From: Ostreococcus lucimarinus
Lineage: Eukaryota
Length of the DNA: 64,000 nt
Assembly: GCA_000092065.1 (NCBI GenBank)
Contig: CP000597.1
Reading direction: 5' to 3' (one strand)
Of the stretch, positions 4,951-21,468 are shown piece by piece. The notes under the pieces are model-generated. The model made no database searches. It saw only the letters and a program-made list of their open reading frames with translations, and had not been told where the DNA came from. Made by a program: the position numbers and the translations under genes. Positions within the stretch are counted from its first letter, which is position 1; every line of letters begins with the position of its first letter.

Positions 4951-7900
4951 ATGCGGCTCGACGACGGCGACGACGCGCGACGAAGGGACGCGCGCGCGGT
5001 TCGAGCGCGCGCGACGCGGACGCCGACGCGCGCGGCGACCACGCGCGGCGATGTCGTCGACGCCGCTGCCGCCGATGATGACATCGACGACGACGCCGTC
5101 GCGCGACCGGACGCGACGCGACGACGACGACGCGACGACGACGCGACGACGACGACGCGCGATGATGAGACGACGCGCGCGCGAGAGGGCGCGAGCGGAC
5201 GCCGGCGAGCGCGGGAACGAGGGAGAGCGACGAGGCGTCGTCGACGGCTCGGGACGGCGGCGGCGGCGGCGGCGACGGCGGCGTTGGCGGCGACGGTCGA
5301 GCGCGTCGGCGTGGACGCGTCGACGGCGCTCACGAAGGGGGTGGCGAGGAATGGTTTCGTGTCGTCGAGCGGGTATAAGTACTATAAGGTGAATGTGGCG
5401 TGCGTGGAGGCGGCGCAGCCGCTGACGTTGGAGCTGACGACGAGCAACGGGGACGCGAACTTGTACGTGTCTCGATCGGCGCAGCCGACGACTTCGTCGT
5501 ACGAACAGCGGAGCGTGAACGTTGGAAATGCGTTGGATTCGGTGACGATCACGAGTCCGGTGAATGGGTACTATTACGTGAGCGTGTACGGCGCGCTGTC
5601 CAGCACGTACAAGCTTCGAGCGCTCACGACGATGTTTACCGGGAAACATCCGTGCACGGGATTTCGAATCACCGATAGCGACGTCTCGAGCGTTGGCTCG
5701 GGATCTGGAAATCAGTTCATACTGCAAGAAGCGCTCACCGCGAGCGCGGCGGCGGGATTCACCGCGGATGTGTCCGTCGACGGCGACGTCATCCTCGGCG
5801 ACGCGTACACCGATTCGGTGACGGCGAAAGGAGAGCTCAAGCTCGGCGTGACGGACAGTACGTACTACGCCATCACGCGACAATCGCCGAGCGCACCGAG
5901 CAGCAACCCGGGCGGCGCTTTGTCGATCGTCGGCGCGAACGCGACCTATCAGGGGGGATCGGTAAAGATTCTCGGCGGAACGGGCGGTTCGGGGGCGGGC
6001 GGCGACGTCGTGATCGAGGCGGGGTCGGCGTCTGGCGGCAACGGTGGCGATTTGAAGTTACGTGGCGGCACGTCGAACTCAGGAACGGGCGGCGACGTCG
6101 TCATAGATGCCGGAGATAGCACGACACAAGCATCTTCGTACGAGGGCATCATTCACATAGGTCCAACTTCTGCGTCGTTTGTGCGCGTCGGCGAGAGTTC
6201 AAATAAGCAAGTTCAAACCGATATTTTCGGCGACTTGACGGTGCACGGAAATCTCTTGACAACGAATGATGTGGTGTACGCGAACAGCTACACGAGTTAC
6301 GTGCAGGTTTCAACCTCTCAAGACGGCATGTTTCATCAAGAAGTGCGCGCGCCAAAGATTACAGGTCTGGACGCGGAGGACATCACGGGCACTCCAACGA
6401 GCACGTTGACTTTAGACGCTGGCATGCGAGGGAGTCAGCAACACGTCGTGATCGCTCCGAGCGAGGCAACGGCGGTTTACATAGGTAGCAGCACATCCAC
6501 GATTCCGGTCTCGATAAGGCAAGGCGCGAACGCAGGAGACGTGCGAGTGCACGCTGATGGCAGCGGCGCGCTGTCCGTGACTTCGGCCGCAGGGCAGGAC
6601 CTGACGCTCGCGTCCGGCGACGACGTGGTGGTGACCACCGCGGCGAGTAAGACGCTCGCGCTGAAGCAGGACTCGACGAGCATTTTGAGCTGGGACGCGG
6701 CCGGCGCTGTGACTGTGAACTCCGTGAGCGGGCAGGACCTGACGCTGAGCACGGGCGGTAGCGCGGCCGTGACTGTGGACTCGACCGGGCAGGTGGGCAT
6801 CGGGACGACGACGCCGGGGAAGACGCTGGACGTCACCGGGACGGCGCGCGTGAGTGGCGCGACGACGCTGAGTAGCACGCTTGACGTGACTGGCGCTACG
6901 ACGCTCGCATCCGTGGGCGTGACCGGTGCGGCCACCGTCGGCGGGACTTTAGGTGTGACTGGCGCTACGACGCTCGCATCCGTGGGCGTGACCGGCGCGG
7001 CCACCGTCGGCGGGACTTTAGGTGTGACTGGCGCTACGACGCTCGCATCCGTGGGCGTGACCGGCGCGGCCACCGTCGGCACGACGCTCGGCGTGACTGG
7101 CGCTACGACGCTCACCGGCGACGTGACGATGAGCAACGACTTGACCGTGAGCGGTGCGCTTACTGTGACATCTGATGCCGCTGTGAGTTTGACCTCTGCA
7201 AGTGGTTCGGACGTGAGCTTGACGAGCGCCGGTACGGGTGGCATCGTGTTGACGTCGACGGACGACATCACGCTCGATGCTGCCGATGATGTGACGATCG
7301 ATGCCGCCGGTGCTTTGTCTTTGGAGCAGGGCGGGACGAGTATTTTGAGCTGGACCGACACCGGCGCTGTGACTTTGAACTCCTTAGGCGGGCAGACCCT
7401 GAGCGTGTCGAGCCTCAGCTCGGCCGGGAACGCGGGCGCCGTGAGCGTGTCCGGCGGCACGACGACTGGGACGTCCTCGAACACCGGCGGCGACTTGACG
7501 CTGCAATCTGGCGGCGCGCCCGCTGGCAGCGTGAACGGTGACGTTCTGGTGGACTCGGCCACTGGTCTAGGCACCGCCGGCTCGATCACGCTTCGCCAGG
7601 GGGTGGGCGGTGAGCGTGTTTCTGTGGACGCGAACGGCGCCGTGAGTCTGGACACGCACTCCGGGCAGGACCTGACGCTGAGCACGGGCGGTAGCGCGGC
7701 CGTGACTGTGGACTCGACCGGGCAGGTGGGCATCGGGACGACGACGCCGGGGAAGACGCTGGACGTCACCGGGACGGCGCGCGTGAGTGGCGCGACGACG
7801 CTGAGTAGCACGCTTGGCGTGACTGGCGCTACGACGCTCGCATCCGTGGGCGTGACCGGTGCGGCCACCGTCGGCGGGACTTTAGGTGTGACTGGCGCTA

Positions 7901-10900
7901 CGACGCTCGCATCCGTGGGCGTGACCGGCGCGGCCACCGTCGGCACGACGCTCGGCGTGACTGGCGCTACGACGCTCACCGGCGACGTGACGATGAGCAA
8001 CGACTTGACCGTGAGCGGTGCGCTTACTGTGACATCTGATGCCGCTGTGAGTTTGACCTCTGCAAGTGGTTCGGACGTGAGCTTGACGAGCGCCGGTACG
8101 GGTGGCATCGTGTTGACGTCGACGGACGACATCACGCTCGATGCTGCCGATGATGTGACGATCGATGCCGCCGGTGCTTTGTCTTTGGAGCAGGGCGGGA
8201 CGAGTATTTTGAGCTGGACCGACACCGGCGCTGTGACTTTGAACTCCTTAGGCGGGCAGACCCTGAGCGTGTCGAGCCTCAGCTCGGCCGGGAACGCGGG
8301 CGCCGTGAGCGTGTCCGGCGGCACGACGACTGGGACGTCCTCGAACACCGGCGGCGACTTGACGCTGCAATCTGGCGGCGCGCCCGCTGGCAGCGTGAAC
8401 GGTGACGTTCTGGTGGACTCGGCCACTGGTCTAGGCACCGCCGGCTCGATCACGCTTCGCCAGGGGGTGGGCGGTGAGCGTGTTTCTGTGGACGCGAACG
8501 GCGCCGTGAGTCTGGACACGCACTCCGGGCAGGACCTGACGCTGAGCACGGGCGGTAGCGCGGCCGTGACTGTGGACTCGACCGGGCAGGTGGGCATCGG
8601 GACGACGACGCCGGGGAAGACGCTGGACGTCACCGGGACGGCGCGCGTGAGTGGCGCGACGACGCTGAGTAGCACGCTTGGCGTGACTGGCGCTACGACG
8701 CTCGCATCCGTGGGCGTGACCGGTGCGGCCACCGTCGGCGGGACTTTAGGTGTGACTGGCGCTACGACGCTCGGCGGGACTTTAGGTGTGACTGGCGCTA
8801 CGACGCTCGCATCCGTGGGCGTGACCGGCGCGGCCACCGTCGGCACGACGCTTGGCGTGACTGGCGCTACGACGCTCGGCGGGACTTTAGGTGTGACTGG
8901 CGCTACGACGCTCGCATCCGTGGGCGTGACCGGCGCGGCCACCGTCGGCACGACGCTCGGCGTGACTGGCGCTACGACGCTCGCATCTGTGGGCGTGACC
9001 GGTGCGGCCACCGTCGGCGGGACTTTAGGTGTGACTGGCGCTACGACGCTCACCGGCGACGTGACGATGAGCAACGACTTGACCGTGAGCGGTGCGCTTA
9101 CTGTGACATCTGATGCCGCTGTGAGTTTGACCTCTGCAAGTGGTTCGGACGTGAGCTTGACGAGCGCCGGTACGGGTGGCATCGTGTTGACGTCGACGGA
9201 CGACATCACGCTCGATGCTGCCGATGATGTGACGATCGATGCCGCCGGTGCTTTGTCTTTGGAGCAGGGCGGGACGAGTATTTTGAGCTGGACCGACACC
9301 GGCGCTGTGACTTTGAACTCCTTAGGCGGGCAGACCCTGAGCGTGTCGAGCCTCAGCTCGGCCGGGAACGCGGGCGCCGTGAGCGTGTCCGGCGGCACGA
9401 CGACTGGGACGTCCTCGAACACCGGCGGCGACTTGACGCTGCAATCTGGCGGCGCGCCCGCTGGCAGCGTGAACGGTGACGTTCTGGTGGACTCGGCCAC
9501 TGGTCTAGGCACCGCCGGCTCGATCACGCTTCGCCAGGGGGTGGGCGGTGAGCGTGTTTCTGTGGACGCGAACGGCGCCGTGAGTCTGGACACGCACTCC
9601 GGGCAGGACCTGACGCTGAGCACGGGCGGTAGCGCGGCCGTGACTGTGGACTCGACCGGGCAGGTGGGCATCGGGACGACGACGCCGGGGAAGACGCTGG
9701 ACGTCACCGGGACGGCGCGCGTGAGTGGCGCGACGACGCTGAGTAGCACGCTTGGCGTGACTGGCGCTACGACGCTCGCATCCGTGGGCGTGACCGGTGC
9801 GGCCACCGTCGGCGGGACTTTAGGTGTGACTGGCGCTACGACGCTCGGCGGGACTTTAGGTGTGACTGGCGCTACGACGCTCGCATCCGTGGGCGTGACC
9901 GGTGCGGCCACCGTCGGCGGGACTTTAGGTGTGACTGGCGCTACGACGCTCGGCACGACGCTCGGCGTGACTGGCGCTACGACGCTCGCATCCGTGGGCG
10001 TGACCGGCGCGGCCACCGTCGGCACGACGCTCGGCGTGACTGGCGCTACGACGCTCACCGGCGACGTGACGATGAGCAACGACTTGACCGTGAGCGGTGC
10101 GCTTACTGTGACATCTGATGCCGCTGTGAGTTTGACCTCTGCAAGTGGTTCGGACGTGAGCTTGACGAGCGCCGGTACGGGTGGCATCGTGTTGACGTCG
10201 ACGGACGACATCACGCTCGATGCTGCCGATGATGTGACGATCGATGCCGCCGGTGCTTTGTCTTTGGAGCAGGGCGGGACGAGTATTTTGAGCTGGACCG
10301 ACACCGGCGCTGTGACTTTGAACTCCTTAGGCGGGCAGACCCTGAGCGTGTCGAGCCTCAGCTCGGCCGGGAACGCGGGCGCCGTGAGCGTGTCCGGCGG
10401 CACGACGACTGGGACGTCCTCGAACACCGGCGGCGACTTGACGCTGCAATCTGGCGGCGCGCCCGCTGGCAGCGTGAACGGTGACGTTCTGGTGGACTCG
10501 GCCACTGGTCTAGGCACCGCCGGCTCGATCACGCTTCGCCAGGGGGTGGGCGGTGAGCGTGTTTCTGTGGACGCGAACGGCGCCGTGAGTCTGGACACGC
10601 ACTCCGGGCAGGACCTGACGCTGAGCACGGGCGGTAGCGCGGCCGTGACTGTGGACTCGACCGGGCAGGTGGGCATCGGGACGACGACGCCGGGGAAGAC
10701 GCTGGACGTCACCGGGACGGCGCGCGTGAGTGGCGCGACGACGCTGAGTAGCACGCTTGGCGTGACTGGCGCTACGACGCTCGGCGGGACTTTAGGTGTG
10801 ACTGGCGCTACGACGCTCGCATCCGTGGGCGTGACCGGCGCGGCCACCGTCGGCACGACGCTCGGCGTGACTGGCGCTACGACGCTCGCATCCGTGGGCG

Positions 10901-13900
10901 TGACCGGCGCGGCCACCGTCGGCACGACGCTCGGCGTGACTGGCGCTACGACGCTCACCGGCGACGTGACGATGAGCAACGACTTGACCGTGAGCGGTGC
11001 GCTTACTGTGACATCTGATGCCGCTGTGAGTTTGACCTCTGCAAGTGGTTCGGACGTGAGCTTGACGAGCGCCGGTACGGGTGGCATCGTGTTGACGTCG
11101 ACGGACGACATCACGCTCGATGCTGCCGATGATGTGACGATCGATGCCGCCGGTGCTTTGTCTTTGGAGCAGGGCGGGACGAGTATTTTGAGCTGGACCG
11201 ACACCGGCGCTGTGACTTTGAACTCCTTAGGCGGGCAGACCCTGAGCGTGTCGAGCCTCAGCTCGGCCGGGAACGCGGGCGCCGTGAGCGTGTCCGGCGG
11301 CACGACGACTGGGACGTCCTCGAACACCGGCGGCGACTTGACGCTGCAATCTGGCGGCGCGCCCGCTGGCAGCGTGAACGGTGACGTTCTGGTGGACTCG
11401 GCCACTGGTCTAGGCACCGCCGGCTCGATCACGCTTCGCCAGGGGGTGGGCGGTGAGCGTGTTTCTGTGGACGCGAACGGCGCCGTGAGTCTGGACACGC
11501 ACTCCGGGCAGGACCTGACGCTGAGCACGGGCGGTAGCGCGGCCGTGACTGTGGACTCGACCGGGCAGGTGGGCATCGGGACGACGACGCCGGGGAAGAC
11601 GCTGGACGTCACCGGGACGGCGCGCGTGAGTGGCGCGACGACGCTGAGTAGCACGCTTGGCGTGACTGGCGCTACGACGCTCGCATCCGTGGGCGTGACC
11701 GGTGCGGCCACCGTCGGCGGGACTTTAGGTGTGACTGGCGCTACGACGCTCGCATCCGTGGGCGTGACCGGCGCGGCCACCGTCGGCACGACGCTCGGCG
11801 TGACTGGCGCTACGACGCTCGCATCCGTGGGCGTGACCGGCGCGGCCACCGTCGGCACGACGCTTGGCGTGACTGGCGCTACGACGCTCGGCGGGACTTT
11901 AGGTGTGACTGGCGCTACGACGCTCGCATCCGTGGGCGTGACCGGCGCGGCCACCGTCGGCACGACGCTCGGCGTGACTGGCGCTACGACGCTCGCATCT
12001 GTGGGCGTGACCGGTGCGGCCACCGTCGGCGGGACTTTAGGTGTGACTGGCGCTACGACGCTCACCGGCGACGTGACGATGAGCAACGACTTGACCGTGA
12101 GCGGTGCGCTTACTGTGACATCTGATGCCGCTGTGAGTTTGACCTCTGCAAGTGGTTCGGACGTGAGCTTGACGAGCGCCGGTACGGGTGGCATCGTGTT
12201 GACGTCGACGGACGACATCACGCTCGATGCTGCCGATGATGTGACGATCGATGCCGCCGGTGCTTTGTCTTTGGAGCAGGGCGGGACGAGTATTTTGAGC
12301 TGGACCGACACCGGCGCTGTGACTTTGAACTCCTTAGGCGGGCAGACCCTGAGCGTGTCGAGCCTCAGCTCGGCCGGGAACGCGGGCGCCGTGAGCGTGT
12401 CCGGCGGCACGACGACTGGGACGTCCTCGAACACCGGCGGCGACTTGACGCTGCAATCTGGCGGCGCGCCCGCTGGCAGCGTGAACGGTGACGTTCTGGT
12501 GGACTCGGCCACTGGTCTAGGCACCGCCGGCTCGATCACGCTTCGCCAGGGGGTGGGCGGTGAGCGTGTTTCTGTGGACGCGAACGGCGCCGTGAGTCTG
12601 GACACGCACTCCGGGCAGGACCTGACGCTGAGCACGGGCGGTAGCGCGGCCGTGACTGTGGACTCGACCGGGCAGGTGGGCATCGGGACGACGACGCCGG
12701 GGAAGACGCTGGACGTCACCGGGACGGCGCGCGTGAGTGGCGCGACGACGCTGAGTAGCACGCTTGACGTGACTGGCGTTACGACGCTCGCATCCGTGGG
12801 CGTGACCGGTGCGGCCACCGTCGGCACGACGCTCGGCGTGACTGGCGCTACGACGCTCGCATCCGTGGGCGTGACCGGTGCGGCCACCGTCGGCGGGACT
12901 TTAGGTGTGACTGGCGCTACGACGCTCGGCACGACGCTCGGCGTGACTGGCGCTACGACGCTCGCATCCGTGGGCGTGACCGGCGCGGCCACCGTCGGCA
13001 CGACGCTCGGCGTGACTGGCGCTACGACGCTCACCGGCGACGTGAGCGTCGGGACTTCCTCGGCTTTGAGTTTTGGTTCTGCAACCCGGCAGATGATCAA
13101 CTTATATGGAACAAACAACGCCATCGGCGTGCAATCGTCCACGATGTATTTTCGTAGTGCTTATAACTTTGCCTTTTTTGAAGGCGGCGTGTACACCAAC
13201 ACAGAGCTCGATCCGGGTTCGGGTGGCACTTTGCGCATGATGATTCAGAAAACCACGGGCAACGTCGGTATCGGGACGGCGAGTCCAGATTATGAACTCG
13301 ACGTGGTAGGCGATATCAACTTTTCTGGGAATCTCTATCAGGGTGGTTCGCTGTTTGCCTCCCCCTGGACGGAGAGCAGCGGTAACGTGTATCGCAGTAG
13401 CGGTAACGTCGGCATCGGGCTGACGAATCCGACCTACAATCTGCACGTTGCTGGAACGGGGCGCGTTAGTACGACGCTATCGGTGGGTCAAGATTTAACC
13501 ATCGACACGGCTGGCGACTTGAACTTTGCGGCGACGCATCGTCAGATGATCAACCTCCGCGTCGGCGCCGAGGGTTTCGGGATCGGGACGCAGATGGACA
13601 CGACGTACTTTCGCTCTCCGGGCCACTTTGCGTTCTACGAAGACGGAACGCACAGCACCACTGACTTGGACGCGAACGGTGGCACCGCGCGTCTGGTGAT
13701 CAGGAGCGGCGGGAAGGTGGGCATCGGGCGGACGAATCCGAGCTATGATCTCGACGTGGTAGGCGATATCAACTTTTCTGGGAATCTCTATCAGGGCGGT
13801 TCTCTGTTCCCGTCCCCCTCCCCCTGGACGGAGAGCGGCAGTAACGTGTATCGTAGTAGCGGTAACGTCGGCATCGGGCTGACGAATCCGAGCTACAAAC

Positions 13901-15045
13901 TGGACGTCACTGGAACAGGACACTTCACGGGCGCGACGACGATCGATGACCAACTCACCGTTGGCGGTAACGTATTGATCCAAAGTACAACCAATAAGAT
14001 TTCGTTTGGCAGCACAGCGCGTCAGTTTATTGAAACGAATAACGGTGGAATCGGAACGCAGTCAAAGACGCTGTATTTTCGTTCACAGGATTTTTTCGGC
14101 TTTTACAAAAATGGCGGTCACAACAGCGCCGATCTGAACCCAGGCGGAAGCGGGACTCTCCTTGTCGCCATTCGCGGTGACATCTCTGGTGCTCGAATGG
14201 CGATTGGATCTTCAGACACAGATAGTGGCTACGCTTTTAAGGTCACCGGGTCGGCGCAAGCGACCGCTGCGCTCGACGTAGGCACGACGCTTAATGTGGC
14301 GTCGTACGCGACAATTCGCGGCGACTTGCGCCTCAATACCGGTACTCAGCAAATAAATTTTGGTACCCAGCACCGTCAGGTTGCTGCGCTCGCGACTGGC
14401 GGCATCGGAACGCAGTCGAACACTGTATACTTTCGTTCACAGGACTTGTTTGGCTTTTATAAAGGTGGCGGCCATAGCTCTACCGCTCTTGATCCAGGCG
14501 GAAGCGGGACTCTCCTTGTCACCATTCGCGGTGACGTCTCTGGTCCTCGATTAGGAGTCGGAGTCACGAATCCCTCCTACGCTCTCGAAGTCAATGGAGC
14601 GGCGCACGTGTCTGGCGCACTGAGCAAGGGAAGTGGCTCTTTCAAGATCGATCATCCACTTCCTGAAATGAAAGACACGCATAATTTGTATCACTCCTTC
14701 ATCGAGGGACCACGGGCGGATCTCATCTACAGAGGCAAGGTTCGTTTGCAGAACGGTAGGGCGATGATAGACATCGATGCCGCATCAAACATGACGACAG
14801 GGACATTTGAAGCACTCAATCGCGACGTGCAGTCGTTCACGTCAAATGAAAGCGACTGGGACCCCGTCCGAGGTTCTGTCGTGGGCAACGTCCTCACCAT
14901 TGAGTGTCAAAACCCCACTTCGACGGCACTCATCAGCTGGCTTGTCATCGGTGAGCGTCACGATCAGCACATGTACGACACAGATTGGACCGATGAAAAC
15001 GGTCGTGTCGTTCCGGAACAATTGAAAAAGAGTGCGACGACGTGA
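4951..15045 (+). CDS. Giant (~3364 aa) repeat-rich secreted or surface protein. Architecture: PPC-like N-terminal domain, seven tandem ~300-aa units with nested 23-aa G/T/V/A sub-repeats, phage-tail-fibre-like GIGT repeats, and a C-terminal intramolecular chaperone auto-processing (peptidase S74-like) domain. Exact start uncertain: the first 100 codons are R/D low complexity and a hydrophobic signal-like segment LGTAAAAAATAALAAT lies downstream.
   Basis: Single open frame of 10 kb. The PPC-like segment is KYYKVNV...TTSNGDANLYVSRSAQP...GYYYVSVYG. The repeat unit is SGQDLTLSTGGSAAVTVDSTGQVGIGTTTPGKTLDVTGTARVSGATTLSSTLGVTGATTLASVGVTGAATVGGTLGVTG... The C-terminal part has four copies of (x)GIGTxxPxYxLDVxG / YFRSxxxFxFY motifs. 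The terminal domain GSGSFKIDHPLPEMKDTHNLYHSFIEGPRADLIYRGKVRLQNG matches the ICA / peptidase S74 signature (IDHPL...L.HSF.E.P..D.IYRG). Confidence 0.75.
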   Translation: MRLDDGDDARRRDARAVRARATRTPTRAATTRGDVVDAAAADDDIDDDAVARPDATRRRRRDDDATTTTRDDETTRAREGASGRRRARERGRATRRRRRLGTAAAAAATAALAATVERVGVDASTALTKGVARNGFVSSSGYKYYKVNVACVEAAQPLTLELTTSNGDANLYVSRSAQPTTSSYEQRSVNVGNALDSVTITSPVNGYYYVSVYGALSSTYKLRALTTMFTGKHPCTGFRITDSDVSSVGSGSGNQFILQEALTASAAAGFTADVSVDGDVILGDAYTDSVTAKGELKLGVTDSTYYAITRQSPSAPSSNPGGALSIVGANATYQGGSVKILGGTGGSGAGGDVVIEAGSASGGNGGDLKLRGGTSNSGTGGDVVIDAGDSTTQASSYEGIIHIGPTSASFVRVGESSNKQVQTDIFGDLTVHGNLLTTNDVVYANSYTSYVQVSTSQDGMFHQEVRAPKITGLDAEDITGTPTSTLTLDAGMRGSQQHVVIAPSEATAVYIGSSTSTIPVSIRQGANAGDVRVHADGSGALSVTSAAGQDLTLASGDDVVVTTAASKTLALKQDSTSILSWDAAGAVTVNSVSGQDLTLSTGGSAAVTVDSTGQVGIGTTTPGKTLDVTGTARVSGATTLSSTLDVTGATTLASVGVTGAATVGGTLGVTGATTLASVGVTGAATVGGTLGVTGATTLASVGVTGAATVGTTLGVTGATTLTGDVTMSNDLTVSGALTVTSDAAVSLTSASGSDVSLTSAGTGGIVLTSTDDITLDAADDVTIDAAGALSLEQGGTSILSWTDTGAVTLNSLGGQTLSVSSLSSAGNAGAVSVSGGTTTGTSSNTGGDLTLQSGGAPAGSVNGDVLVDSATGLGTAGSITLRQGVGGERVSVDANGAVSLDTHSGQDLTLSTGGSAAVTVDSTGQVGIGTTTPGKTLDVTGTARVSGATTLSSTLGVTGATTLASVGVTGAATVGGTLGVTGATTLASVGVTGAATVGTTLGVTGATTLTGDVTMSNDLTVSGALTVTSDAAVSLTSASGSDVSLTSAGTGGIVLTSTDDITLDAADDVTIDAAGALSLEQGGTSILSWTDTGAVTLNSLGGQTLSVSSLSSAGNAGAVSVSGGTTTGTSSNTGGDLTLQSGGAPAGSVNGDVLVDSATGLGTAGSITLRQGVGGERVSVDANGAVSLDTHSGQDLTLSTGGSAAVTVDSTGQVGIGTTTPGKTLDVTGTARVSGATTLSSTLGVTGATTLASVGVTGAATVGGTLGVTGATTLGGTLGVTGATTLASVGVTGAATVGTTLGVTGATTLGGTLGVTGATTLASVGVTGAATVGTTLGVTGATTLASVGVTGAATVGGTLGVTGATTLTGDVTMSNDLTVSGALTVTSDAAVSLTSASGSDVSLTSAGTGGIVLTSTDDITLDAADDVTIDAAGALSLEQGGTSILSWTDTGAVTLNSLGGQTLSVSSLSSAGNAGAVSVSGGTTTGTSSNTGGDLTLQSGGAPAGSVNGDVLVDSATGLGTAGSITLRQGVGGERVSVDANGAVSLDTHSGQDLTLSTGGSAAVTVDSTGQVGIGTTTPGKTLDVTGTARVSGATTLSSTLGVTGATTLASVGVTGAATVGGTLGVTGATTLGGTLGVTGATTLASVGVTGAATVGGTLGVTGATTLGTTLGVTGATTLASVGVTGAATVGTTLGVTGATTLTGDVTMSNDLTVSGALTVTSDAAVSLTSASGSDVSLTSAGTGGIVLTSTDDITLDAADDVTIDAAGALSLEQGGTSILSWTDTGAVTLNSLGGQTLSVSSLSSAGNAGAVSVSGGTTTGTSSNTGGDLTLQSGGAPAGSVNGDVLVDSATGLGTAGSITLRQGVGGERVSVDANGAVSLDTHSGQDLTLSTGGSAAVTVDSTGQVGIGTTTPGKTLDVTGTARVSGATTLSSTLGVTGATTLGGTLGVTGATTLASVGVTGAATVGTTLGVTGATTLASVGVTGAATVGTTLGVTGATTLTGDVTMSNDLTVSGALTVTSDAAVSLTSASGSDVSLTSAGTGGIVLTSTDDITLDAADDVTIDAAGALSLEQGGTSILSWTDTGAVTLNSLGGQTLSVSSLSSAGNAGAVSVSGGTTTGTSSNTGGDLTLQSGGAPAGSVNGDVLVDSATGLGTAGSITLRQGVGGERVSVDANGAVSLDTHSGQDLTLSTGGSAAVTVDSTGQVGIGTTTPGKTLDVTGTARVSGATTLSSTLGVTGATTLASVGVTGAATVGGTLGVTGATTLASVGVTGAATVGTTLGVTGATTLASVGVTGAATVGTTLGVTGATTLGGTLGVTGATTLASVGVTGAATVGTTLGVTGATTLASVGVTGAATVGGTLGVTGATTLTGDVTMSNDLTVSGALTVTSDAAVSLTSASGSDVSLTSAGTGGIVLTSTDDITLDAADDVTIDAAGALSLEQGGTSILSWTDTGAVTLNSLGGQTLSVSSLSSAGNAGAVSVSGGTTTGTSSNTGGDLTLQSGGAPAGSVNGDVLVDSATGLGTAGSITLRQGVGGERVSVDANGAVSLDTHSGQDLTLSTGGSAAVTVDSTGQVGIGTTTPGKTLDVTGTARVSGATTLSSTLDVTGVTTLASVGVTGAATVGTTLGVTGATTLASVGVTGAATVGGTLGVTGATTLGTTLGVTGATTLASVGVTGAATVGTTLGVTGATTLTGDVSVGTSSALSFGSATRQMINLYGTNNAIGVQSSTMYFRSAYNFAFFEGGVYTNTELDPGSGGTLRMMIQKTTGNVGIGTASPDYELDVVGDINFSGNLYQGGSLFASPWTESSGNVYRSSGNVGIGLTNPTYNLHVAGTGRVSTTLSVGQDLTIDTAGDLNFAATHRQMINLRVGAEGFGIGTQMDTTYFRSPGHFAFYEDGTHSTTDLDANGGTARLVIRSGGKVGIGRTNPSYDLDVVGDINFSGNLYQGGSLFPSPSPWTESGSNVYRSSGNVGIGLTNPSYKLDVTGTGHFTGATTIDDQLTVGGNVLIQSTTNKISFGSTARQFIETNNGGIGTQSKTLYFRSQDFFGFYKNGGHNSADLNPGGSGTLLVAIRGDISGARMAIGSSDTDSGYAFKVTGSAQATAALDVGTTLNVASYATIRGDLRLNTGTQQINFGTQHRQVAALATGGIGTQSNTVYFRSQDLFGFYKGGGHSSTALDPGGSGTLLVTIRGDVSGPRLGVGVTNPSYALEVNGAAHVSGALSKGSGSFKIDHPLPEMKDTHNLYHSFIEGPRADLIYRGKVRLQNGRAMIDIDAASNMTTGTFEALNRDVQSFTSNESDWDPVRGSVVGNVLTIECQNPTSTALISWLVIGERHDQHMYDTDWTDENGRVVPEQLKKSATT
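6727..13050 (+). repeat. In-frame coding tandem array of seven near-identical units (933, 864, 1074, 1005, 900 and 1107 bp spacing between unit starts, plus a last unit). Each unit contains a variable number of a 69-bp (23-aa) sub-repeat and 33/36-bp partial variants.
   Basis: Unit starts (codon CAG of SGQDL) at 6733, 7666, 8530, 9604, 10609, 11509 and 12616. All spacings are divisible by 3 and differ by multiples of 69, 36 or 33 bp. Units appear essentially identical at nucleotide level by eye. Confidence 0.9.
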
Positions 15046-15163: not shown

Positions 15164-18100
15164 CTATAGTCTAAAAGATAGCTTTGCGAACTCTCCGTCG
15201 GACACCGCGTCGCTCGTCTGCCCCCCCGTCGCGCCGTCATCGCTCGTTTCGCTTCCGAGCAACGAAGACGCCTTTCGCCGGCGCTCAGGCGAATCGTCCG
15301 CGTCCCGAAAATCGTAGAGATAATCGCTATGCCTTGCATAATGCACCCGCGTCGCTTCTTCTCCTGAGGCATTAAATCTATACGACTCGGGAGAAAATGA
15401 TGACTGAGCGAATCTGTCCTCATCTGACGCGCTCTCTTCGGCGTCGTACGATTCACCCATGGAATACGCCAGTTCGCTCGGTTCACGTTCACTCAGTCCA
15501 TCATTCGGTGTATTCAGCCCTGGTTGGCGTCCACTAGATGGGTCTTTCATCTCAAACGCGTAATGATCGTCATCCGAGTCAGCATCCGTGGAAGATGCGT
15601 AAGCACGCCGCGACTCAAACCTGTTCTCACCAAAAAATGCGGCGCCGCGTAGAGGTTCCGGTGGTTCCAGTTCTAGTTCGGGTTCCGGTTCCGGTCGCAC
15701 TTCCCGTTCTGCTGTCACATCCGTCTCTGGTGCGAGATCTAAGATGGACTGGTTCCGTCCGGGCACGACGTTACCCTGCTCTCCATTCGTCTCGAATGCG
15801 GCGAGCGTCGCGACGTGATCGCGAGCGACACTCCCGCCTCGGTGACCCTTTACGACGGCACGTTCTTCCTGAGCGCTGTGGGTGAATCTCTCAATCACGC
15901 TACGCGCTTTGGTTGATGCGTCAAATAACGCGCCACCAGGTTCGCGCGACCGCACGACTTTCTTTTTAATTCTGATTGCGAGTCGTCGAAGCTGAATCGT
16001 GTGCTTGATAATTTCCACCACCTCCTCGGTGTCGTACAGTCCCTCGTCGTCCGCTGATACTGAGAATCTTTCGAGAATGATCGCCACAAATAAATTTCCG
16101 AGCAAAAATATAGAGATGATGACAAATGATATAAAGTATGGGACCGCAGCAGCGTTATACGAGCAGTCGATGCTGGATTCCAACATGAACGGTGCTTCTG
16201 TGCGTAAGCACGCCTCTGTTTGGTACACCTCGCCGAACGTGCCAACCCAGCCACCCGTGTACACCCCGATGAGAGATGAGCAAGCTGTGGTGAATCGTTG
16301 AAAGTTCGAGTACTTCGATAGCACGCCGCCTTCGAAAGGGCCGGTTTCATCGCCGAAAAGTGAAACACCCATGATGGCGTACGAAAAGATCGCGAGGGAC
16401 GATAGCGCGGCGACGTTTCCGACACCCGGAAGACTCATTATGAACGTGTTGAAGAGCGACCGCAGCCCAGAATGTGCCTTTACCAGTTTCAGTAATCTCA
16501 ACAATCTCACCAATTGTAGGTAATTCATGACACCGCCTGCGTTTAGACTTTGTCCGATCGCCTGTACGATGGAAACTACGACGACGAAGGCGTCCAGCCA
16601 ATTCCAATAATTCCTAAAGTAACGCGTCCGACCTTGCGCCATGAGCAAAAGCATCATTTCCAAAGAGTACACCGCAGTGAACGCGATAGACATGCAGAAG
16701 TGAGCATATTCTGCTGAACTGCTCATATTCGCCGTTTGTGTCAAGAGCTCGATTAAATTTGCGCACACTACCACGAGGATGAAGTACGCAAACTTTTTCG
16801 GCTTTGAGATATGATGCGCAAGTAGACGAGCTCGCGACCAAAGGCTTTTGCCTGGCGGCGGTACGATTCTGCGCCATGCCTCTGAATCTTGCGTGCTTGC
16901 ACGTAGTATAGCCTGCTGCCAGCGCCGCTGCGCTGGGGTGACAAACGTAAGCTTGTCTTGCGAAGCCATCTTGTTAAAGTTGTCCACGAGCGCCGTGACT
17001 AATAAATTCAACCAAAAGAAATTCCCGATGGCGACCGTCAATACAAAATAAAGAGCGGCGGCTTGGTTGTTATCTGTTTTCAAGCCGGTCCCGACGCCTG
17101 TGGTATCCATGGCGACCCACATGATTTCTTGCCAGTCATCGCCGGCGTGCAGTAGAAACGTCGATAAAAGTGCAGCGCCAAAGTTATCAAAGTTGAACTT
17201 TGCATTTCGCCACTTTCCTCCCGCTGCCTCGCACGTTGCTTGTGTAGTGTAGCTACTCGCATCATTCACCACTCGACACGACCAAAACTTACCCATAAAG
17301 AGCTCCATACCAAGAAGTGCGAAAATTGACATGGAAACTAAACCGATGAAGCACACGTAACTTACGGCTGGGATCGCGGAAAGTACAGTGTTAACGACAA
17401 GGCGGAGACCAGGGAAACGACGAATGGATCGAAGCGGGCGCATGATTCGCAAAAGTCGAAGTGCTCGCACGCTTCCGCTGCCATCGTCTGCCGCGGTGAG
17501 CGAAATGATTGATGTAAAGACGACGACGCCATCGAGAATGTTGAAGGAATTCTTCAGATACGCAGTCGGTCGCTCGTACAACCCGTAGGCGAATAACTTT
17601 AATACCATCTCTGCGCCAAATAAAGTCGTAAAAGTAATATCAACCGCGGTGTACACTTTTGCAGTATGAGATCCCGCCACTGGCCAAGTCTTTGTTTCTG
17701 TCGCGAGTAACACGCTACCAGCGATGATCATGCATAGAATGGCGTTCTCAAAGAGGTTGTGTGAAACAATTTTGTGCACCAAGTATTTGTATCTCTCGAC
17801 GGGAATCGTATCGTCGTACAGCGGTATAAAGTCGCCATCTTTTGTGACGATCACGCCCGGTATCTCTGACGACTGTTTCTTCACGCGTGAGGAGATGGAT
17901 CTCGTGATTGTCGCCGCCCAAGGACCGTGCGCGTCAAAGACGACATGCTCGTCTTCCTTACTCTTATCCTCGATGCTTAAACGATTGTTTTGCGCCGCAA
18001 ATCTTTTCGTCATACTGTGCCTAATAGAACTTTTGATAGAGCTAGTCACCCCGAACGCTTTGTCTTGATAGTCTTGATACTCCACAAACTTTGGCGTCAG

Positions 18101-20740
18101 GCGAAGTTGAGCCTCCTTAAGAGCGTGCTCGCTTATGGTCAGTACTTGCGCCGGTGTCTTCAACTTGAATCCGATCGAATCTAGAAATATCCTGCACGCA
18201 GCAACATCTTCGACTGTTTGCTTTCTCAAGCGGTCCTTCTTGACCTGCGCGAGCTTGCCACCGTGATCCGGAGGCTTTAATGCTGCGAGTACGGATGAAA
18301 TCGCCGTAGGCGTACTGCCATCGGCCGTCTTTAAACTCTTTTTCGCTTGCGATTGTATTGCTTGTTCGGCACATTCTTGTTTCCTGGCCGCATCCAAAAG
18401 ATTAAACTTGAAGCTCGTATCACCTCTGTCTTTTATCGAGTCGCCGCGCTTGCTGCGCGCATGTTTTCGCAACGTACTCCTGAATGCGTTCGCCGCGAAT
18501 GTCATGTTTTGCAGTACCCGTTTCGCTTTCCGATTCGGATCTAGCACGATATCACCCGCACGTTCGATGGCAGACCTCAGTCTGCCATCTTCAAGCTCGT
18601 CTTGCGCGCGTTGCTCTTCCTCGATGTCGACGAGCGAACACGAGTCGATTAAAATCCCGAGCACGAGCGACAAGATGACGGTGGATAAAAAAATCCACGC
18701 GATGGTGTACAGAACGACGACGTCGTTACCGGACGCTACCATAGTATTCCACGCGACAACAAACGAGTCCTCTCCCGTGGCGACAACAAACAGCGTCAAC
18801 GCGCTGCGCAAAAAGTTCCTAAACGTCAAGCGCTCGTCGTCGAGCGCTCCTAACCCGGTGAAGAGTTGAAATCCGTAAATGGCAAATATGACTTGAAATA
18901 ATAGCCAAACGATCAAAAACGGCCACATGTCTTGGAAACCGAGATACGCGCTTGAAATGATCTTCCTAAATTCTCTGTTGTTTCTGATGACGCGAAACGT
19001 TCGCAGCGCCCTTCCTATTCGCAAGAGACGAATGAATGACGCGCTCACGCCTTGACTCGTCACCGCCGTACTGATGACACCGGTAAACACGATCAACCCA
19101 TCGACAACGTTTTGCTTTGAGCTCCAGTATCCTCTAAAGCCGTATCCGATGTGTTTAATCGCCATTTCTACAGCAAAACATCCGAGGAAAACATATTCTA
19201 AAATTTCAGAAGCCTTGACGAATCCCGACGACGCCGCGTGATGCTGCGACATCATCAAAATTGTATTAAATATAATAACCACCGTGATGCTGGCATCAAA
19301 ACGTCGGTCTTCAGCGATTTTCCAGCACATTTGACGCGTTGCATCAGACACAAAGAGACGAAAAAAACGCTCACCATTCTTGTGAAAGTTGTTTCCGCGT
19401 CCATCGCTTTCGCCGCGACTGAGCGCCGTCTCGTCGTCCAAGCTTTCTAGTACTTTCTCTGTCTTCGCCTGGCTCGAGTCTTCGGGCGCTTCGTCTTCGT
19501 CGCGAATACCCATTTGCGTCAACGTCGCGCAAATGACGGATGTAAAGAGTTCCATCATAAAAAACCCACCCATCAGAACGACGACGATGAACCAAAGAAA
19601 CGCCGCGGGATAGCCAACCGCGTACGCCGTGGGATTGAGCAACTCATTCCAACCGTCGATGGTCATTCCATTTAACGCGACAATTGAACTTCTCCCAGCG
19701 TTCGCAAAGCTCAGAAATCCGTCATACGGCTCGATGCCCGAATCACAGCACCACTCCGTCGCGCTTCTGTTTGTGTTCCATTCCTTGTAGTTGCACGTGC
19801 TGTCGTACTCATTTGGGTACGTTCCTTCGGCGCCCAACGCGAGAGCGCCCATCCACGCGCCGACCAAGTTCGCACACGTCTCACTCCCCGTCCCCACGGG
19901 AAACACGTAGCTCGCGTTCGTCGCTTGATCCGGCGGCGTCCCGTACCACCGTCCCGTCATCCGACCGCCGAACATCGTCACGCCGCTCACCGCGAAGAAT
20001 ATTAAAAACCACAGCAAAAACAACAGCACGTCCCCCAACAACGGCAGCGCTCGAGCGATCGTTTTCATCGCCAACCTCGCGCTGCGGTACTTCGCGAACA
20101 ACTTGAACGCGTACAACGACCGCAACAGTCGCACCGTCACCACCTGCGAGCCTCCGATCGGCATCAACATCAACGACAGCACGACGAGCGTGAAATCGAA
20201 CCGATGCCAATTCGTCGTCAAGTACGCCCCCTCGCCCAGCGCGAATCCCAGCGCCACGCTCTTCACCAGCGCCTCCGCCGCGAACACCCCCGCGACGACG
20301 TAATTCGCCGCCGTCGCCGCCGTCGCCTCCGCCGCGCCATCCCTCGCCGGTTTCACCACCGCGACGATCGCGCTCGAGCCCACGACGCACATCGCGACGA
20401 CGGCGTGAAACGCGCGCGCCTCGATCGCGCGCGCGCAGAACCGTCGCGTCGCGCCGTCGCGCCGGAACATCAACAGCGACGCGTCGTTCGCGCGCCATCG
20501 CTCGAGCGTCCTCGCGACGCGTCGCGTCACCGCGCCTCCCGCGTCGTCGTCGCCGTCGCGCGCGTCGTCGTCGTCGTCGTCGCGCGCGCGCGCGCCGTCG
20601 CGCGCGTCGCGCGCGTCGCCGTCGTCGTCGTCGTCGTCGCTCGTCGAGCTCGCGCGCGCGCTGTCGTCCACCTTCCGCGCGCGCGCCTCGCGCGCGTCGC
20701 GCGCGCGCGACACGAACGCGTCCGTGAACTGAAAGTTCAT
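15164..20740 (-). CDS. Four-domain voltage-gated cation channel (CaV/NaV/NALCN superfamily), 1858 aa, single exon.
   Basis: Four homologous 6TM domains, each with an R/K-every-third S4: VTVRLLRSLYAFKLFAKYR; IRLLRIGRALRTFRVIRNNR; ALRLLRIMRPLRSIRRFPGLR; LVRLLRLLKLVKAHSGLR. Pore loops are MTIDGWNEL, ATGEDSF, AGDDWQEIMW and YTGGWVGT. Acidic disordered N-terminus; IQ-like segment TIQLRRLAIRIKKK after domain IV. Confidence 0.85.
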   Translation of the reverse strand: MNFQFTDAFVSRARDAREARARKVDDSARASSTSDDDDDDGDARDARDGARARDDDDDDARDGDDDAGGAVTRRVARTLERWRANDASLLMFRRDGATRRFCARAIEARAFHAVVAMCVVGSSAIVAVVKPARDGAAEATAATAANYVVAGVFAAEALVKSVALGFALGEGAYLTTNWHRFDFTLVVLSLMLMPIGGSQVVTVRLLRSLYAFKLFAKYRSARLAMKTIARALPLLGDVLLFLLWFLIFFAVSGVTMFGGRMTGRWYGTPPDQATNASYVFPVGTGSETCANLVGAWMGALALGAEGTYPNEYDSTCNYKEWNTNRSATEWCCDSGIEPYDGFLSFANAGRSSIVALNGMTIDGWNELLNPTAYAVGYPAAFLWFIVVVLMGGFFMMELFTSVICATLTQMGIRDEDEAPEDSSQAKTEKVLESLDDETALSRGESDGRGNNFHKNGERFFRLFVSDATRQMCWKIAEDRRFDASITVVIIFNTILMMSQHHAASSGFVKASEILEYVFLGCFAVEMAIKHIGYGFRGYWSSKQNVVDGLIVFTGVISTAVTSQGVSASFIRLLRIGRALRTFRVIRNNREFRKIISSAYLGFQDMWPFLIVWLLFQVIFAIYGFQLFTGLGALDDERLTFRNFLRSALTLFVVATGEDSFVVAWNTMVASGNDVVVLYTIAWIFLSTVILSLVLGILIDSCSLVDIEEEQRAQDELEDGRLRSAIERAGDIVLDPNRKAKRVLQNMTFAANAFRSTLRKHARSKRGDSIKDRGDTSFKFNLLDAARKQECAEQAIQSQAKKSLKTADGSTPTAISSVLAALKPPDHGGKLAQVKKDRLRKQTVEDVAACRIFLDSIGFKLKTPAQVLTISEHALKEAQLRLTPKFVEYQDYQDKAFGVTSSIKSSIRHSMTKRFAAQNNRLSIEDKSKEDEHVVFDAHGPWAATITRSISSRVKKQSSEIPGVIVTKDGDFIPLYDDTIPVERYKYLVHKIVSHNLFENAILCMIIAGSVLLATETKTWPVAGSHTAKVYTAVDITFTTLFGAEMVLKLFAYGLYERPTAYLKNSFNILDGVVVFTSIISLTAADDGSGSVRALRLLRIMRPLRSIRRFPGLRLVVNTVLSAIPAVSYVCFIGLVSMSIFALLGMELFMGKFWSCRVVNDASSYTTQATCEAAGGKWRNAKFNFDNFGAALLSTFLLHAGDDWQEIMWVAMDTTGVGTGLKTDNNQAAALYFVLTVAIGNFFWLNLLVTALVDNFNKMASQDKLTFVTPAQRRWQQAILRASTQDSEAWRRIVPPPGKSLWSRARLLAHHISKPKKFAYFILVVVCANLIELLTQTANMSSSAEYAHFCMSIAFTAVYSLEMMLLLMAQGRTRYFRNYWNWLDAFVVVVSIVQAIGQSLNAGGVMNYLQLVRLLRLLKLVKAHSGLRSLFNTFIMSLPGVGNVAALSSLAIFSYAIMGVSLFGDETGPFEGGVLSKYSNFQRFTTACSSLIGVYTGGWVGTFGEVYQTEACLRTEAPFMLESSIDCSYNAAAVPYFISFVIISIFLLGNLFVAIILERFSVSADDEGLYDTEEVVEIIKHTIQLRRLAIRIKKKVVRSREPGGALFDASTKARSVIERFTHSAQEERAVVKGHRGGSVARDHVATLAAFETNGEQGNVVPGRNQSILDLAPETDVTAEREVRPEPEPELELEPPEPLRGAAFFGENRFESRRAYASSTDADSDDDHYAFEMKDPSSGRQPGLNTPNDGLSEREPSELAYSMGESYDAEESASDEDRFAQSSFSPESYRFNASGEEATRVHYARHSDYLYDFRDADDSPERRRKASSLLGSETSDDGATGGQTSDAVSDGEFAKLSFRL

Positions 20741-20920
20741 CGAATCCCGGCGCGTCGCGCGCCGCGCGTCGCGCGCGCGCGCCGCTGTGCCGACGAATCG
20801 AATCGAAACCGCATTCGCATTCGCGAATCGCGCGCGTCAGAGCGCCGCGCGACACGCCGCTCGACGCGACGCGCCGCGTCGCGACGCGCGACGCCGCGCT
20901 CGACGCGCGCGCGCGCGCGC

Positions 20921-20958
20921 GACGCGCTGAAAACGACGCGACGCGCTGAAAACGGCGC
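20921..20958 (+). repeat. Two tandem copies of a 19-bp motif (gacgcgctgaaaacgRcgc) in the shared channel/calmodulin promoter, about 20 bp upstream of the calmodulin-like ATG.
   Basis: Read directly: gacgcgctgaaaacgacgc followed by gacgcgctgaaaacggcgc. Confidence 0.6.
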
Positions 20959-20976
20959 GTTCGATCGCGCGCGGGC

Positions 20977-21468
20977 ATGTCGCGGAAACACCTCACGGAC
21001 GAGGAGCTCGCGAGCGCGTGGCCGTACCTCACGCGCGCGCAGGTGCAGGAGTTCAAGGAGGCGTTCGATATATTCGACGTCGACGGCGGCGGGACGATCA
21101 CGGCGGAGGAGCTCGGGGAGGTGATGAAGTCGCTCGGGCAGAAACCGACGAGGGCGCAGCTGGAGGCGATGGTGCGGGAGATCGACGCGGACGGGGACGG
21201 GGCGATCGATTTTCCAGAGTTTTTGACGATGATGCTGCGGAAGATGAACGAGGGTGATCCGGAGAGGGAGCTCAGGGACGTGTTCACGGTGTTCGATAAG
21301 GATCAGAGCGGGACGATTAGCGCGGATGAGCTGAAGAGCGTGATGAAGGTCATCGGGGAGAAACTGACGGAGCAAGAGATCGAGGACGCGATTCGGTTGG
21401 CGGATACCACGGGAGACGGAGAGGTTGATTACGATGAGTTCATCGCGTTCGTGCTGTCGTCGAATTAA
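20977..21468 (+). CDS. Calmodulin-like EF-hand protein: four EF hands plus a ~25-aa N-terminal extension.
   Basis: [66 protein letters not shown]...[53 protein letters not shown] is nearly collinear with canonical calmodulin. Confidence 0.85.

Follow-up and report, generated by a model that had tools for sequence, protein, structure and literature searches.

The 64,000-nucleotide stretch of Ostreococcus lucimarinus DNA analyzed here (the window; contig CP000597.1 of assembly GCA_000092065.1) carries, at positions 15164-20740 of its minus strand, a gene that is the predicted pore-forming subunit of a four-domain voltage-gated cation channel from O. lucimarinus or a near-identical strain. The gene is an uninterrupted open reading frame (ORF) of 1858 codons, with no stop and no need of introns, and a Pfam scan of its product recognized four Ion_trans stretches (PF00520) in one polypeptide (E = 5.1e-171) and otherwise nothing notable. 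Together with the Arg/Lys-bearing fourth transmembrane segment (S4) of each repeat, these domains bear out the four-domain, voltage-sensor-bearing channel proposed in an earlier reading made from the DNA letters (hereafter, the sequence-only reading). An identical protein of 1858 amino acids (P0001) occurs in public assemblies. Furthermore, Table S2, the part of Pozdnyakov et al. 2018 (PMC5824947) that gives S4 strings for 277 four-domain channels, contains a row, "Ostrel3", that corresponds to O. lucimarinus XP_001422214.1 and matches all four S4 segments when machine-reading errors are allowed for; among 164 relatives, only this protein carries the S4 strings of repeats I-III. Because of this identity, the gene is already represented in RefSeq and in a published survey and is not a new discovery. 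The coordinates of its features are collected in Table 1.

The positions of the selectivity filter were assigned by pairwise HMMER alignments to channels with solved structures, and the four pore motifs (TIDGW, TGEDS, AGDDW, and YTGGW) were all found where the sequence-only reading had placed them. Repeats I-III align to the solved channels with no gap, and thus the ring residues of these repeats are Asp362, Glu657, and Asp1201. The alignments of repeat IV are gapped: TGDNW of CaV3.2 pairs with TG-GW of the query, the gap falling at the filter Asp, and TSAGW of NaV1.5 pairs with T-GGW, in which a Gly faces the Ala of the DEKA ring. An AlphaFold2 model of repeats III-IV, built from 14 sequences (mean predicted local distance difference test score [pLDDT] of 69.6 and predicted template modeling score [pTM] of 0.63), places P1 and P2 helices between S5 and S6 in both repeats. 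The P1 helix has 13 residues in each, extending over amino acids 1187-1199 in repeat III, where P2 starts at W1203. In repeat III, three residues (G1200-D1201-D1202) form the turn that joins P1 to P2, against two (G1496-G1497) in repeat IV. Considering both the gapped alignments and the two-residue turn of the model, the change in repeat IV is best termed the deletion of one residue, with a Gly-Gly turn left behind. The earlier description of this repeat as having lost its residue to Gly is fair shorthand in that no side chain is offered to the ring, but what changed is the length of the turn.

A ring of Asp, Glu, and Asp with no fourth side chain differs, by the alignments and the model, from the EEEE, EEDD, DEKA, DEEA, and EEKE rings, as had been claimed, and no canonical ring emerged under a better alignment. 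The unusual ring might nevertheless be an alignment artefact concealing a canonical one (E/E/E/E, E/E/D/D, or D/E/K/A), as repeat IV can be aligned in two ways that differ by one position. We regard this as exceedingly improbable, since repeats I-III are ungapped against the solved channels, the repeat IV stretch Y-T-G-G-W-V-G-T contains no Asp, Glu, or Lys at all, and the model leaves the two Gly alone between P1 and P2. Ser659 replaces the near-invariant Trp that follows the repeat II filter, a loss on which the sequence-only reading was silent. A second tier of carboxylates lies at the +1 position, formed by Asp658 (repeat II) and Asp1202 (repeat III), which brings the acidic groups to five in total, and none of the four pore loops contains a Lys.

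Table 1. Features of the channel gene and of the divergent calmodulin-like gene, with positions in the window.
Feature	Position	Strand	Basis
Complete channel gene, 1858 aa	15164..20740	-	Intact ORF; Pfam Ion_trans x4; identical public protein P0001
Repeat I, S1-S6, aa ~100-415	19496..20443	-	Hydropathy, motifs; S2 with F153..E156...K160
S4 of repeat I: R204, R207, K213, R219, R222; register broken by Tyr and Ala	20075..20131	-	Sequence; matches the Ostrel3 string in Table S2 of PMC5824947
TIDGW, repeat I pore loop, aa 360-364	19649-19663	-	Ungapped against CaV3.2/3.3 TLEGW
Filter Asp362, repeat I	19655..19657	-	Opposite Glu of CaV3 TLEGW; invariant in 19 clade members
Repeat II, aa ~478-712	18605..19309	-	Motifs, alignment, S4
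S4 of repeat II: R571-R592, eight Arg spaced three residues apart	18965..19030	-	Sequence
TGEDS, repeat II pore loop, aa 655-659: filter Glu657, +1 Asp658, Ser659 at the Trp position	18764..18778	-	Ungapped against CaV2.2/CaV1.1 TGEDW
Repeat III, aa ~990-1262	16955..17773	-	AlphaFold2 helices; CaV3 alignment
S4 of repeat III: six in-register Arg, R1092-R1107	17420..17467	-	Sequence; model helix aa 1089-1108
AGDDW, repeat III pore loop, aa 1199-1203: filter Asp1201, +1 Asp1202	17132..17146	-	Ungapped against CaV3.3 SKDGW; G-D-D turn in model
LTFVT in III-IV linker, candidate hydrophobic inactivation latch	16937..16951	-	Sequence; kept in clade consensus
Repeat IV, aa ~1312-1568	16037..16807	-	AlphaFold2 helices; alignments
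S4 of repeat IV: R1412, R1415, K1418, K1421	16478..16507	-	Sequence; model helix aa 1405-1422
YTGGW, repeat IV pore loop, aa 1494-1498	16247-16261	-	Gapped alignments
Repeat IV filter turn Gly1496-Gly1497, one residue short, no acidic side chain	16250..16255	-	Gapped alignments; model
IIKHTIQLRRLAIRIKKK, basic amphipathic IQ-like stretch after repeat IV S6, aa 1577-1594, candidate calmodulin site	15959..16012	-	Sequence; kept in clade consensus
Calmodulin-like gene, 163 aa, four EF-hands, divergent from the channel	20977..21468	+	Pfam EF-hand families; 60% identical to calmodulin

The altered filter is shared by a group of related proteins. A word-indexed search returned ten homologues, 51-62% identical to the channel over nearly its full length, and all ten carry exactly TIDGW / TGEDS / A(V)GDDW / YTGGW. 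The pore-loop windows of these proteins are 77-89% identical, compared with 52-63% for the whole proteins. This excess of pore identity, together with the invariance of the four motifs, points to purifying selection on the pore. An exhaustive HMMER search with repeats III-IV yielded 14,480 relatives, in which the score falls from 820 to 518 bits after this core group. A sister group of nine sequences (30-41% identity) reads T(I/V)DGW / TGENT / TGDNW / (T/S)GNW; it shares the Asp-Glu-Asp ring, has likewise lost the repeat II Trp, and has the same short loop in repeat IV, with Asn in place of Asp at both +1 positions. These sequences match the Micromonas rows Micros4 and Microp5 of the table published with PMC5824947. 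Our loop survey examined 164 sequences, in which 57 repeat II loops and ~148 repeat IV loops were scorable. Ser or Thr stands at the repeat II Trp position in 19 of the 57, all of them from the core and sister groups, and the four-residue T/S-G-x-W loop of repeat IV is present in every scorable clade member. Among the other ~145 family representatives, neither change was seen, apart from one sequence that is a possible exception for the repeat IV loop.

This conservation also bears on whether the protein conducts ions at all. It could instead be a nonconducting voltage sensor or scaffold, or the product of a decaying gene, as two near-invariant pore features (the repeat II Trp and the length of the repeat IV loop) are altered and the GC content at third codon positions (GC3) is low over most of the gene relative to its neighbors. 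However, the 1858-codon frame is intact, the altered loops are invariant across ~20 sequences whose identity has fallen to 30-62%, the pore windows are more conserved than the remaining protein, and the features of S6 and S4 are kept. Since the derived loops are under strong constraint, a loss of conduction is unlikely, and we give this explanation very little credence.

A neighbor-joining tree of 553 columns of repeats III-IV recovered the core group in 80/80 bootstraps, and the core and sister groups together likewise in 80/80. With the Micromonas matches, this result supports the lineage-restricted clade that had been suggested, which, judged by the sequences assembled here, is known so far from Mamiellales-type green picoalgae. 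The tree also suggested that the clade is an offshoot of CaV3, but we did not adopt this placement, as the CaV3-like group was its neighbor in only 21% of the bootstraps (17/80); the weak support for a deep position agrees with PMC5824947. Six non-CaV3 sequences were the nearest neighbor of the clade in 32/80 bootstraps. They are possibly P0024, P0025, P0067, P0072, P0084, and P0088, a further channel group with non-acidic ring residues (e.g., TLQGW / TGNAW / AGDGW / TLTW).

The voltage sensors are well represented in the four repeats. The Arg/Lys totals of S4 in repeats I-IV are 7, 9, 8, and 5, with in-register runs of 8, 6, and 4 in repeats II, III, and IV, and repeat I reads R-R-(Y)-K-(A)-R-R. 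The earlier count of four to six Arg/Lys per S4 is therefore only approximate, and the register of repeat I is interrupted, but a charged S4 is indeed found in each repeat. The S2 countercharge motif, an aromatic residue followed at the third position by Glu (F/Y..E), is present in all four repeats. Asn-x-x-Asp occurs in S3 of repeats II-IV, and repeat I has a conserved Asp182 in S3.

Taking filter and sensors together, we consider it moderately likely that the protein is a depolarization-activated channel that is permeable to Ca2+, and probably prefers it, with reduced affinity. Depolarization would shift the S4 segments and open the gate, and the narrow part of the pore would be formed by Asp362, Glu657, Asp1201, and the side-chain-free Gly1496-Gly1497 turn. 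Since it has five carboxylates, lacks Lys, and places an Asp at +1 in repeat II, such a pore should bind and pass Ca2+. Its affinity for this ion would probably lie below that of an EEEE channel, so Na+ might carry current when Ca2+ is low. In this manner, membrane depolarization could be converted into Ca2+ entry in a non-flagellate picoalga. Mutagenesis of CaV1.2 by Yang et al. in 1993 and by Ellinor et al. in 1995 reportedly found that the repeat IV Glu adds least to Ca2+ affinity, and a lineage that tolerates the loss of the repeat IV acid would fit with such a small role. Furthermore, the Lys-free rings EEDD, DEEA, and DEEG have been classed as calcium-selective or non-selective (PMC6259924). 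In the classification of Spafford (PMC10120453), an Asp next to the repeat II high-field-strength (HFS) site, at HFS+1 (the "calcium beacon"), correlates with calcium selectivity or with strong calcium block. As aligned here, the ring is one step from the EEDD of CaV3, and its charge pattern equals that of DEEA/DEEG. The selectivity of the channel is thus probably less exotic than the sequence-only reading suggested.

Several observations weigh against this assignment. The shortened turn of repeat IV and the loss of the bracing Trp in repeat II mean that the geometry of the pore may differ from that of every solved channel, in which case a reading based on counted charges could be deceptive. 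With a pLDDT of 69.6, the model is of only moderate confidence, and it takes in two repeats out of four; the S4 of repeat I is broken by Tyr and Ala. In the sister clade, Asn occupies the +1 position in repeats II and III alike (TGENT, TGDNW), and selectivity may therefore vary within the lineage.

The main alternative is a weakly selective cation channel carrying mainly Na+ (or Na+/K+) in seawater, which would depolarize the membrane rather than admit Ca2+. In such a channel, the lost carboxylate and the flexible Gly-Gly turn would widen the filter and lower its Ca2+ affinity. The reduction of the ring to three carboxylates, the short repeat IV turn, the missing repeat II Trp, and a sister clade devoid of the +1 Asp would all agree with it, and small changes near the filter can make the EEDD pore of CaV3 sodium-permeable (PMC9694082 and PMC10120453). 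Nevertheless, the +1 Asp of repeats II and III in the core clade restores five carboxylates, one of them at the Ca2+-correlated position, and the ring is without any Lys. We therefore hold a mainly Na+-carrying channel to be rather unlikely and retain the Ca2+-permeable channel as the preferred assignment.

The III-IV linker of the channel is short in the model, with ~55 residues from S6 of repeat III to S1 of repeat IV, and its LTFVT motif might act as a hydrophobic inactivation latch. The stretch IIKHTIQLRRLAIRIKKK, beyond the last S6, may be a calmodulin site. Pfam scans of the isolated linkers and the C-terminus, at E values up to 10, detected no Ca_chan_IQ, GPHH, Na_trans_assoc, or other channel-specific cytoplasmic family, and the I-II linker showed no similarity to the AID, which has no Pfam model of its own in that scan. 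A sequence-string search of Table S3 of PMC5824947 found no inactivation or IQ annotation for Ostrel3. The N-terminus of the channel (amino acids 1-95; 20456-20740, minus strand) is of low complexity, rich in Asp and Arg (DDDDDDGDARDARDG...), and not conserved among homologues. The true start codon is consequently uncertain, which leaves the channel core unaffected.

The calmodulin-like gene and the channel gene are arranged head-to-head; 236 bp (20741-20976) separate the former from the channel start codon, and the calmodulin-like product has a 17-amino-acid N-terminal extension. The same pair is conserved in four homologous loci (L002, L004, L006, and L007), whose EF-hand proteins share 82-90% identity. 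In these loci, however, the whole block is syntenic (KH-WW, kinase, DUF6737, EF-hand, channel, and pseudouridine synthase), and the pair is absent from the sister-clade locus L008; in the sister-clade locus of P0011, an ABC transporter lies upstream of the channel instead. Given this general synteny and the absence of the pair from a sister-clade locus, adjacency is weak evidence for a functional link, and we did not adopt a functional linkage on that ground. An alignment of the divergent intergenic region (190-250 bp) from five loci revealed no shared promoter motif, the mean identity being 42%. A link between the channel and the calmodulin-like protein, for instance through the IQ-like helix at amino acids 1577-1594, may at most be hypothesized.

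The other genes of the window include those for a pseudouridine synthase, a kinase, a DUF6737 protein, CCDC93, an importin, and an aminodeoxychorismate/anthranilate-type synthase, a content consistent with the nuclear genome of a green picoalga. Downstream of the channel and before the pseudouridine synthase gene sits an ORF of 3364 amino acids (4951-15045, plus strand), made up largely of near-identical blocks rich in Thr, Gly, Ala, Val, and Ser (...GVTGATTLASVGVTGAATVGTTL...), the last 681 amino acids of which have no Pfam match. As the channel and pseudouridine synthase genes adjoin directly in the homologous loci, this repeat ORF looks like a species-specific insertion. These repeats probably also account for an antisense ORF of 2221 amino acids (6477-13142).

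Base composition varies along the channel gene. Its GC3 is 0.84-0.95 over the first ~300 codons (19840-20740, beside the divergent promoter) and then falls abruptly to 0.47-0.67 (15164-19840), against 0.75-0.85 in the neighboring genes. A foreign origin of the low-GC gene body was considered and rejected, as the homologues likewise have a GC3 below that of their flanks; low GC3 thus characterizes the gene family rather than this locus. A second low-GC stretch (46071-48734, minus strand; 0.47 in the 46- to 48-kb bin) holds an ORF of 887 amino acids with no Pfam match.

Accounts of selectivity in four-domain channels generally draw on a handful of animal rings (EEEE, EEDD, DEKA, and DEEA). The clade described here would let the ideas of "ring charge" and "beacon" be tested usefully on natural variants, as it combines three carboxylates with a short, side-chain-free fourth loop and a +1 Asp that is either present or not. 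It could also help to explain the role of voltage-gated Ca2+ or Na+ entry in the non-motile picophytoplankton dominant in parts of the ocean. A bolder proposal would be that the asymmetric pore of the clade, with an Asp pair along the I-III diagonal, a Glu across from the Gly-Gly backbone turn along II-IV, and no bracing Trp in repeat II, is a distinct filter solution. Its selectivity and block profile would then fall outside those of CaV, NaV, and NALCN, and the calmodulin-like protein might serve as a dedicated Ca2+ sensor at the IQ-like helix following the repeat IV S6. We think this proposal doubtful. The value of the clade is comparative and incremental, since the gene is in public catalogues and the diversity of protist filters is established. 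As to the precise variant, the searched text of PMC5824947, whose filter map stands in Figure 3, and of two reviews is silent on D/E/D/G, on the deletion in repeat IV, and on the missing Trp of repeat II, and none of the papers searched pairs "DEDG" with "selectivity filter".

Among channels with solved structures, the HMMER search ranked three T-type channels of human first (CaV3.2, CaV3.3, and CaV3.1; E = 8e-130 to 2e-120), followed by L-type CaV and NaV (E of ~1e-108 to 1e-97), with NALCN far behind (1e-32); CaV3.2 and CaV3.3 also head the Foldseek list. The likeness to CaV3 (E/E/D/D) includes the filter Asp of repeat III and the Glu-Asp pair of repeat II (TQEDW in CaV3, TGEDS in the channel). 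The TG-NW of the sister clade in repeat IV likewise resembles the TGDNW of CaV3 minus its Asp, and AID and IQ domains were not found in the channel. In contrast, the channel has Asp rather than Glu in repeat I, its repeat IV acid is deleted, and its repeat II Trp is lost, so that the ring reads D/E/D/(deleted, Gly-Gly) instead of EEDD. It differs from CaV1 and CaV2 in its ring, which is not E/E/E/E, and in having no Pfam match to Ca_chan_IQ or GPHH.

With respect to sodium channels, the ring is distinct from the D/E/K/A of NaV1, with Asp1201 in repeat III, and no Na_trans_assoc domain was found. NaV1 carries an IFM-type inactivation particle in its III-IV linker, and the linker of the channel contains the conserved LTFVT, a candidate latch. 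The ring charges of NaV2/"CaV4" (D/E/E/A, D/E/E/G) follow the same pattern as those of the channel (Asp, Glu, acidic, and small neutral), but the two are not close in sequence. The NaV-type repeat I loop is TQDFW (TQD[FY]W) where the channel has TIDGW, and the NaV-type repeat II loop is without the +1 residue, whereas the channel has a +1 Asp and CaV-like loops. Moreover, the NaV-type repeat IV loop is of normal length (TSAGW in NaV1.5), and the short loop of the channel is that of repeat IV, not repeat II. NALCN and fungal Cch1 share the four-repeat architecture, but the channel has no Lys in its ring (compared with EEKE/EKEE), and its S4 segments are charge-rich, not charge-poor.

Finally, the closest setting for the channel is that of the protist four-domain channels treated by Pozdnyakov et al. 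2018 (PMC5824947) and Verret et al. 2010, and Ostrel3 belongs to the tabulated dataset of the former. Non-canonical protist rings have already been reported in PMC5824947 and two reviews, among them D/D/K/G, T/E/N/D, N/E/D/N, RSDD, and SESE. Beside these rings, the channel is a conserved filter variant of a known channel type, encoded by an already catalogued gene.

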